Shown here: one piece after another, positions 1-6,128 of the stretch
Position numbering within the stretch: the stretch's first letter is position 1
Layout of the letters: each line of letters opens with the position of its first letter
Virus record (IMG/VR): IMGVR_UViG_2695420792_000011
Coordinates: 1-8,103 of that record
From: a virus
Lineage: Duplodnaviria; Heunggongvirae; Uroviricota; Caudoviricetes
Length of the DNA: 8,103 bases
Strand: one strand, 5' to 3'
Made by a program: the position numbers and the translations under genes
Notes under the pieces: model-generated
Seen by the model: only the letters and a program-made list of their open reading frames with translations
Told to the model about the DNA's origin: nothing
Database searches by the model: none

Positions 1-351
1 CCGTTCGCCGGTTGCCCCGACAGGGCCGGTGTCACCGCGCTCTCCCTTATCACCCTTCGGCCCCTGAGGACCCGCGGGCCCCTGCTCCCCCTTTGGCCCG
101 GGAGGTCCCACCACGGTGGGGATTCGGTTTACGGCGTCTTCCGCCGCTATCCTGCTTTGTTCCGCTGACTGTGCGCTTTCTGCTGACTCCCGGGCTTTTT
201 CTGCTGCGGTCGTTGCATCCCTGGCTGCATTACCGGCTGCACTTTCTGCCGTCTTTTTTGACAACTCGGCATCTGCTGCACTTTGTAATGACTCACTGGC
301 TTTTTGAGCGGCCGCAGAGGCCGAGGACGAGGACGCCTCCTCTGAGGGCAT
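1..351 (-). CDS. Partial CDS (5' part, continues past window start): phage side tail-fibre-like protein with Ala/Ser/Glu-rich region and collagen-like Gly-X-Y repeats; possibly an N-terminally truncated remnant
   Basis: Manual minus-strand translation from ATG at 351-349 (in-frame TAA immediately upstream at 354-352) gives MPSEEASSSSASAAAQKASESLQSAADAELSKKTAESAAGNAARDATTAAEKARESAESAQSAEQSRIAAEDAVNRIPTVVGPPGPKGEQGPAGPQGPKGDKGERGDTGPVGATGER with no stop before position 1. It is absent from the ORF track because it has no stop in the window. The 12 consecutive G-X-Y triplets and the A/S/E-rich stretch match the composition of enterobacterial Stf-type tail fibres. No convincing SD precedes the ATG. 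Confidence 0.6.
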   Translation of the reverse strand, partial: MPSEEASSSSASAAAQKASESLQSAADAELSKKTAESAAGNAARDATTAAEKARESAESAQSAEQSRIAAEDAVNRIPTVVGPPGPKGEQGPAGPQGPKGDKGERGDTGPVGATGER

Positions 352-713
352 TTATGGAGCCGCGACAAAGTGTGGTGCCGTAACTGGCTAAGTGCTCTCA
401 GCGTTGTGGTAATCCGCGAAATGGCGCGGCGGTAAGTATGGCGGGGTTACTCTTTCCCCGTTGAGGACACCGGATTGTCAGGTTGACCATACGCCTGAGT
501 GACAACCCCACCACAACAGCCACTGCTTTGGCGGTACCAGTTTGTACACTTGCTTCCGGCTGGTACCGCTCTTTTTACAAAACAGAGAAGAGCATCACCG
601 GACGACGGGCTCATAACCCAATCCACCCGGGCGGCTGCCACCGCAGGTGTTCTTCTCTGTTTTGTGGAGAAACCAACCGACCTTGCAGGGTCGATATGAT
701 GAGGAGCAGCAAA

Positions 714-1076
714 ATGGCTAGCGAACGCAGTACTGATGTGCAGGCATTTATCGGGGAGCTGGACGGCGGCGTATTTGAAACCAAAATCGGCGCAGTTCTC
801 AGTGAAGTCGCTTCCGGTGTGATGAACACGAAAACCAAAGGTAAGGTCTCGCTCAACCTGGAAATCGAACCGTTTGATGAGAACCGTGTGAAAATCAAAC
901 ACAAACTCTCATATGTTCGCCCGACTAACCGCGGGAAAATTTCCGAAGAAGACACCACCGAAACGCCGATGTATGTCAATCGCGGTGGTCGCCTGACTAT
1001 TCTGCAGGAAGACCAGGGACAATTACTGACTCTTGCCGGTGAACCTGACGGAAAACTCCGCGCAGCAGGTCATTAA
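714..1076 (+). CDS. yfdP: YfdP-like prophage protein (120 aa), unknown function
   Basis: ATG at 714 preceded by GAGGAG (700-705); product MASERSTDVQAFIGELDGGVFETKIGAV...GKLRAAGH. The track ORF 483..1076 is the same frame with an implausible N-terminal extension. Length and sequence match my recollection of CPS-53 YfdP. Confidence 0.7.
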   Translation: MASERSTDVQAFIGELDGGVFETKIGAVLSEVASGVMNTKTKGKVSLNLEIEPFDENRVKIKHKLSYVRPTNRGKISEEDTTETPMYVNRGGRLTILQEDQGQLLTLAGEPDGKLRAAGH

Positions 1077-1141
1077 TATCGTTCTTAATTAACTGATTAT
1101 TTATCTCATCACTGAATATCTTTATATAGTGAGGACTTATT

Positions 1142-3811: not shown

Positions 3812-4012
3812 ATGGCAACTTTGACAAAAAAGGAACAGGCATGGTTGAGCGAATTACAGAACGTTCTTGATCGCTGCCCGTCACCGAAAAAAATTGGTTT
3901 TTACACCATTGGCGATAAAAGCATTTACCTGTATGACCTACGCCGCATGGATGAAATCATGGAGGCTCTTGATGATCGTTCGTCAATGGGATTGGTGTGT
4001 TGCTGTCCATGA
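3812..4012 (+). CDS. Small hypothetical phage protein (66 aa)
   Basis: ATG 3812 lies 1 nt after the upstream stop with GGAG just upstream; coding-like composition; the C-terminus ...GLVCCCP is unusual. Confidence 0.5.
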   Translation: MATLTKKEQAWLSELQNVLDRCPSPKKIGFYTIGDKSIYLYDLRRMDEIMEALDDRSSMGLVCCCP

Positions 4013-4076
4013 TATGAATGCCGGATTTGAAGAAAAGATTTTGTTCCCCTCGTCAGTTGAAAGCACTGCGGGTTAA
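3972..4076 (+). CDS. Candidate small overlapping ORF (34 aa) MIVRQWDWCVAVHDMNAGFEEKILFPSSVESTAG
   Basis: ATG 3972 with GGAGG at 3961-3965 (6-nt spacing); frame 0 is open to TAA 4074-4076 just before the SD of the next gene. Could instead be the tail of a frameshifted 3812 gene. Confidence 0.25.
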   Translation: MIVRQWDWCVAVHDMNAGFEEKILFPSSVESTAG

Positions 4077-5561: not shown

Positions 5562-5588
5562 AACCCGTATATGTACGGGTTATTTTTC
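5562..5588. terminator. Hairpin aacccgta-tatg-tacgggtt followed by atttttc; intrinsic terminator between convergent genes
   Basis: 8-bp perfect stem 5562-5569/5574-5581, 4-nt loop, T-run 5583-5587 on the plus strand. The minus-strand stop codon (5580-5582) lies inside the right arm. Confidence 0.6.
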
Positions 5589-6128
5589 TTTATCACTATC
5601 TTTTCTTGATTTGAACAATCCACTAACAACGAAACCAACCAAACCAACAATACTAATTGTACTTGTACCTAGTAATGCAACGATCGCTTCAACTGGAGGC
5701 TTTCCTTCATGTGCAATAAGAAACGATGTAAACATTGCGACAACGAATAAGCACCAACACGACATAAACCAAACCGTGAATGAGGCCATTTTTGTCCGAA
5801 GCTCATTGTCTATTTCTTTACCAGTTGCGTCAGCTATCTTATCCCGTACTTGTGATTTGAGCATATCAAGCTGAGCTTGAAGACTGTCCATTCTGTTCTG
5901 CTGCATAAACTCATGCAATGCACCAGTATTAGAACCAAACTCTTCTGCCTCCAGAATAGCTTTATTTTCTGAAGAAGAATCATCGTCGCTCTCATGATTA
6001 GACGGCTCAAATGCAGATTTAAAAACCTGTTCTTGACTGTCAGTAGAGTTTAAGGATGCTTCAGAGCGACCATTTTCAACACCTGCGGCCGCTCCGATAA
6101 GTTTATAGATATCTGAATTGTGAGACAT
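5580..6128 (-). CDS. 182-aa membrane protein: acidic disordered N-terminus, predicted coiled-coil, two C-terminal TM helices; candidate toxin/effector (PanT-like) partner of the upstream DUF4065 protein
   Basis: ATG 6128-6126 lies 22 nt downstream of the stop of the 6151-6624 gene. Hydrophobic segments MASFTVWFMSCWCLFVVAMFTSFLIA and IVALLGTSTISIVGLVGFVVSGLF (about 5613-5786) are followed by a basic tail KSRKDSDKEK. AT-rich codon usage. Confidence 0.7.
   Translation of the reverse strand: MSHNSDIYKLIGAAAGVENGRSEASLNSTDSQEQVFKSAFEPSNHESDDDSSSENKAILEAEEFGSNTGALHEFMQQNRMDSLQAQLDMLKSQVRDKIADATGKEIDNELRTKMASFTVWFMSCWCLFVVAMFTSFLIAHEGKPPVEAIVALLGTSTISIVGLVGFVVSGLFKSRKDSDKEK

Follow-up and report, generated by a model that had tools for sequence, protein, structure and literature searches.

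The cryptic or defective lambdoid prophages of E. coli that originated by internal deletion include CPS-53/KpLE1 of strain K-12, in which yfdO adjoins yfdP, and e14. [quoted passage not shown] 2012, PMC3368898). Prophages and islands that integrate at dusA have also been described (Farrugia et al. 2015, PMC4482086). In this work, we have analysed a stretch of 8,103 nt, here called the window, which corresponds to bases 3-8105 of the draft contig CYEH01000029.1 (GCA_001284685.2, 55.7 kb). As occurs in the cryptic lambdoid prophages, yfdP and the early-left operon persist in this DNA beside an unrelated truncated late gene, but the breakpoints differ, and the exact junction of the window is present in no other record searched. 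As in the dusA-integrating elements (PMC4482086), a displaced dusA 5΄ end is found, although here the window does not reach the integrase end and the greater part of the prophage has been lost. When compared with the EPclA proteins, and in particular with the protein of strain D1 (RefSeq WP_073514734.1), the left end of the window is alike in its DNA (100% identical to D1 over 345 nt), its PCoil composition, its Gly-X-Y repeats and its PCoil/Col boundary, where …NRIPTVV is followed by GPPGPK. Unlike them, it has neither the PfN domain nor the first ~38 PCoil residues, and it takes its start codon from foreign DNA; the rest of Col (the C-terminal two-thirds) and the PfC domain fall beyond the contig end, and so are not visible.

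We propose, with a probability of about 0.8, that window 1-345 is the remnant of a 5΄-truncated EPclA-type fibre pseudogene, joined to the yfdP side by a single illegitimate deletion of ~37 kb. The features of the locus are the following (coordinates are those of the window, and the basis of each assignment is given in brackets):

1-108, minus strand: Col part of the remnant, 12 Gly-X-Y triplets equivalent to residues 251-286 of the intact fibre, cut by the contig and window end (translation, Pfam PF01391).
109-345, minus strand: PCoil part of the remnant, Ala/Ser/Glu-rich, equivalent to residues 172-250 of the intact fibre and ending in …NRIPTVV at the PCoil/Col boundary (DNA and protein alignment; domain names after PMC3368898).
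343-345: putative deletion junction with a 3-nt microhomology, TGA, where fibre homology ends (345) and yfdP-upstream homology starts (343) (genome searches, alignments).
346-354, minus strand: TAA-ATG-CCC from yfdP-side DNA, an accidental in-frame start with no Shine-Dalgarno (SD) sequence (translation, three-way alignment).
12-383 (plus strand), 116-307 (plus strand) and 147-368 (minus strand): frame-artefact ORFs on the same low-complexity DNA (ORF list).
343-713, plus strand: retained distal part of the cI(ymfK)-yfdP intergenic region (loci of relatives).
714-1076, plus strand: yfdP, 120 aa, first gene of the surviving early-left operon (ORF list, genome match, PF27127).
7396-8103, minus strand: yjbM, a host gene of 235 aa, DUF2713 (ORF).

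The minus strand of window 1-354 translates as a stop followed by MPSEEASSSSASAAAQKASES…NRIPTVV and then by GPPGPKGEQGPAGPQGPKGDKGERGDTGPVGATGER (in the longer reading, a stop, MPSEEASSSSASAAAQKASESLQSAADAELSKKTAESAAGNAARDATTAAEKARESAESAQSAEQSRIAAEDAVNRIPTVV and then GPPGPKGEQGPAGPQGPKGDKGERGDTGPVGATGER), this last part being a run of 12 unbroken Gly-X-Y triplets still open at the window start. An earlier note, made from the sequence alone, had described an Ala/Ser/Glu-rich segment and 12 such triplets on the minus strand from 351 to 1, and this is what the translation contains: the frame starts M-P-S-E-E…, goes on through the Ala/Ser/Glu-rich stretch into the triplets, and is intact across all of its 117 visible codons. 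The note was also right in stating that the ORF begins directly after an in-frame TAA and has no good SD. The TAA (352-354) is immediately 5΄ of the ATG (349-351) on the minus strand, more stops are found farther upstream, and no AGGAG-like motif is present in the 40 nt upstream of the ATG on this strand (…CACTTTGTCGCGGCTCCATAA). The three overlapping ORFs that are listed here are other frames of the same low-complexity DNA, and had correctly been taken for artefacts; exact look-ups with the products of the two that span the junction, 12-383 (plus) and 147-368 (minus), returned no record. The true minus-strand frame is absent from the ORF list because ORFs running past the window edge are omitted from it.

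In Pfam, the 117-aa fragment matches the Collagen family (PF01391) only, with 28.2 bits and an E value of 1.6e-6, just over the gathering score (cut-off 27.2 bits). This score, taken together with the 100% DNA identity to annotated fibre genes over window 1-345, which was found in strains D1 and MFDS1001074, means that the collagen signal is not a product of chance. GC content is 0.71-0.74 over the collagen repeats only, and the composition profile does not change abruptly at 343. Of 5,426 complete E. coli genomes, 1,929 match window 1-345 with genes annotated as 'prophage tail fiber N-terminal domain-containing protein', and a single genome may have as many as 15 of these EPclA-type fibre genes; the fibre homology ends at 345 in all the matches listed. 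The same segment is present in 320 phage records, mostly of Stx-converting lambdoid phages, and the alignments listed for these again end at 345. A collagen-like prophage (side) tail-fibre gene, as the sequence had suggested at first sight, is therefore what the segment derives from.

The fibre gene of strain D1 has 434 codons, of which window 1-345 corresponds to codons 172-286. The domains of the D1 protein are:

Residues 1-133: phage_tail_N (PF08400, PfN) (Pfam).
Residues 251-309: Collagen, best stretch (Pfam; 36 Gly-X-Y triplets from residue 251).
Residues 360-423: Phage_fiber_C (PF06820, PfC) (Pfam).

The fragment had been taken for the N-terminus of the fibre, but it is not, because the window sequence starts at residue 172 without the PfN domain (PF08400 was sought in the window ORF by Pfam and is absent), and the ATG belongs to yfdP-side DNA. 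The suspicion that the ORF may be a 5΄-truncated remnant, on the other hand, was well founded: 171 codons are gone, comprising the whole PfN domain and the first ~38 PCoil residues. Visible here are the distal 79 PCoil residues (345-109), which are identical to D1 residues 172-250 and amount to no more than the distal two-thirds of that domain, followed by the initial 12 of ~36 collagen triplets (108-1). The non-collagen part of the fragment contains 30% Ala, 19% Ser and 12% Glu. The window carries a fragment of an EPclA-type member gene, and no intact member; by likeness to the D1 gene, the frame would run for ~148 more codons to the Phage_fiber_C domain.

From position 343 onward, thousands of E. 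coli genomes match the window with the DNA upstream of their yfdP genes; the matches listed for this region all begin at 343, with a single exception that begins at 509. When the window was aligned with both the D1 fibre gene and the yfdP-upstream region of strain D97-1, a clean switch was seen at TGA, and the likeness between the two parents is limited to these 3 bases (343-345). Six intact loci, with 99.2-99.7% identity, run leftward past the equivalent of 343 into immunity-region DNA. The intact relatives have ymfK, which codes for a cI-like LexA/S24 repressor, on the same strand as yfdP, and the cro-like, replication and Q genes on the other; in them, the ATG equivalent to 349-351 opens a mini-ORF of only ~20 codons (judged by eye in the L002 row of the alignment). 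Since the ATG, the CCC and the TAA all come from yfdP-side DNA, the hidden ORF owes its start codon to a chance effect of the fusion. The distance from this ATG (351) to that of yfdP (714) is 362 nt, which agrees with the divergent arrangement and the spacing of about 360 bp first noticed, and the deletion or rearrangement junction of a defective prophage that had been suspected between fibre and yfdP can be placed exactly at 343-345.

The comparison with intact lambdoid prophages that the earlier note had recommended provides a model for the origin of this structure. In E. coli O26 RM10386, one intact lambdoid prophage contains both halves of the window, with the same strand and order. Window 1-345 corresponds to positions 9808-10152 of this locus (L027), with 93.9% identity and within a 437-aa EPclA-type gene, and window 343-1100 corresponds to positions 47474-48231, with 99.5% identity. 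The 37.3 kb between both segments hold the 5΄ part of the fibre gene, lom, J, and the tail, head, portal, terminase and lysis genes, as well as Q, the replication genes, ymfL/ymfT (cro-like) and ymfK (cI-like). The two flanks of the junction keep their order and orientation in this prophage and have phage genes between them, as expected of an internal-deletion remnant. Because its fibre part is only 93.9% identical, the RM10386 prophage is a model and not the direct ancestor.

As the halves are collinear in RM10386, one deletion reproduces the structure of the window, including the divergent orientation and the 362-nt spacing, and we infer that a single deletion, rather than several events, made the junction. 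In our model, an illegitimate deletion of ~37 kb at the 3-nt microhomology TGA would have fused fibre codon 172 to DNA 371 nt upstream of yfdP. This event would have taken the virion-attachment domain of the fibre, lom, J, and all the tail, head, packaging and lysis genes, together with Q, the replication genes, cro and the cI-like repressor, and ATG 349-351 would have arisen by chance in the fusion. The survivor would be a decayed prophage at dusA, which retains the att end, a Panacea-type toxin-antitoxin pair and, from yfdP to prtN, the early-left operon.

Could the junction be real but the product of recombination between two prophages of one chromosome, by inversion, translocation or inter-prophage deletion? 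The number of EPclA-type genes that a single genome may carry would favour such an exchange, and the 100% identical D1 copy (gene order J – lom – fibre – small PfC gene – nleH/nleF) belongs to a prophage located near yodB and not at dusA. This reading has to be weighed because the dusA prophage of strain STEC409, the closest whole-window relative inspected, has a fibre of a different, non-collagen type. However, the strand and order of the halves are exactly those predicted by a simple internal deletion of a known intact prophage, the dusA prophage of D97-1 carries lom and fibre remnants at its integrase end on the same strand, and recombination between prophages requires extra assumptions. 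We consider it unlikely, and the internal deletion of one prophage is the reading that we prefer.

The junction is supported by one assembly only, whose contig is recorded in 2 samples. It was not found in the 5,426 complete E. coli genomes, and exact scans gave 0 matches for a junction 27-mer in the GTDB representative genomes and 0 matches for a junction 22-mer in the JGI metagenome contigs. At the protein level, a search with the 117-aa fragment returned only matches of up to 205 aa, mostly contig-end partials, and none of the 8 that were fetched starts with MPSEEASS. A second query consisted of the hypothetical full remnant (MP plus D1 residues 172-434), with which a true remnant should rank top; no MPSEEASS… protein was obtained and all the high scorers have PfN, in a search that non-representative cluster members could escape. 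Five proteins of 230-320 aa without PfN (P0138, P0196, P0197, P0205 and P0206) were considered as candidates for the remnant and rejected, being frameshift, fusion or contig-end products.

One of these proteins, P0196 (E. coli MY011, MY011_28990), has an N-terminal integrase segment (Arm-DNA-bind_3) fused in frame to collagen repeats at …VGATGERGP…, and the fusion point is in the same repeat unit as the contig end of the window. It may be either another broken EPcl gene or an assembly join within the collagen repeats.

The source contig ends 2 bases past the window start, and for this reason the remnant ORF is not extendable on its source. This end is inside a multi-copy repeat, 347 nt past the junction, and the most likely reason for the stop is that several prophage copies share the collagen-repeat k-mers. 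A junction so close to a contig end within a repeat family, missing from all the other collections searched and next to a collagen region that is internally repetitive (79% self-match), might also be an artefact of a short-read assembler, namely a chimeric contig end at a multi-copy collagen-repeat gene. We find this quite improbable, because the parents have only 3 nt in common, far below what a chimera in a k-mer graph needs. Moreover, the 345 nt past the join reproduce a real gene variant perfectly (100% identity), and do so in frame and in the orientation expected from a deletion. At a real junction, an assembler would normally read through the unique join and halt where the collagen k-mers first become shared, as this contig does.

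A consensus scan of both strands of positions 1-1100 found no sigma-70-like promoter sites. Lacking a promoter-like site, an SD and the PfN domain, the remnant appears to be a pseudogene, most likely silent as judged from consensus scans only, and it should be unable to work as a tail fibre. The alternative is that the truncated ORF is a functional gene: translation from the new ATG would give a free, collagen-like PCoil-Col-PfC trimer that acts outside the virion. The intact frame over the 117 visible codons would be in line with this idea, as would the autonomous folding and trimerisation of the recombinant Col-PfC and PCoil-containing fragments (PMC3368898). We nevertheless judge it very unlikely: besides the missing SD and promoter-like site, there is a stop directly before the ATG, the start codon itself is a fusion accident, the junction is unique to one contig, and no conserved family of N-terminally truncated proteins exists, the variants in the databases being heterogeneous frameshifts and contig-end partials. 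That the fusion made a new expressed gene whose free PCoil-Col-PfC trimer, off the virion, was co-opted by the host, for instance to mimic collagen at the surface or in secreted form, is hardly to be believed.

The right end of the window locates the element. The displaced 5΄ end of the native dusA gene is found at 6929-7033 on the minus strand (MHGNSEMQKINQTS…APMLD, after which the sequence diverges); it is 100% identical to the annotated fragment of STEC409, and its position next to yjbM is the same as in the annotated dusA lysogens STEC409 and D97-1. Beyond yjbM, the relatives carry zur, yjbJ, dinF and lexA. As the displaced dusA 5΄ end marks the att end, the element is a dusA-integrated prophage, here reduced to its early-left arm. 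The end with the DusA-associated tyrosine integrase, beside the restored dusA gene, lies outside the window and contig; the integrase is present in the relatives STEC409 and D97-1. Both relatives were considered as the direct ancestor and rejected. The STEC409 dusA prophage has a non-collagen fibre, with no DNA match; the D97-1 dusA prophage keeps only partial lom and fibre genes, adjoining Q, and its remnant fibre does not overlap window 1-345. Though they are not ancestors, the two confirm the gene order and strand.

Other features of the window were observed along the way. A Panacea/SocA-domain protein is encoded at 6151-6639 (minus strand), followed at 5580-6128 (minus strand) by a protein of 182 aa with hydrophobic C-terminal helices; at this end of the prophage, the two probably form a pair of PanA-type antitoxin and membrane toxin. 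In the relatives L010 and L015, a YafO-type toxin takes the place of this Panacea-type pair. At 3812-4076 (plus strand), two ORFs of 66 and 34 aa represent a single 87-aa gene, intact in L019 (9727-9990), that a 1-nt insertion has interrupted. The 66-aa frameshift product occurs in only 3 contigs of the collection, the source contig and two grouped as similar, and it can therefore serve as a lineage marker for the source strain.

In STEC409 (L023, 7379-8619), the yfdP early region is part of an intact dusA-integrated Stx2 phage (e/i/l/k subtype) with a P2-like contractile tail, and the early-left module is thus common to prophages with very different late regions. In another contig (ENA ERZ28756471 contig_169; L011, 9542-10000), yfdP adjoins a truncated Mu-like tape-measure gene, in an element near an integrase and icd; here the homology to the window starts only at ~528, at an independent deletion joint upstream of yfdP. 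Decay joints of a similar type are common around yfdP.

What does this locus mean for the annotation and the biology of these prophages? A truncated fibre pseudogene at a prophage deletion joint is of an already known kind, and the exact breakpoint alone is new. The proper annotation of the segment is a tail-fibre pseudogene fragment, with its N-terminus missing and partial at the contig end, and not a gene start. Multi-copy EPcl collagen-repeat genes break short-read assemblies, and therefore caution is advised with ORFs at such contig ends. For the prophage itself, positions 343-345 would mark a deletion of ~37 kb, by which the element at dusA was left without the immunity, replication, lysis and structural genes of its intact relatives.
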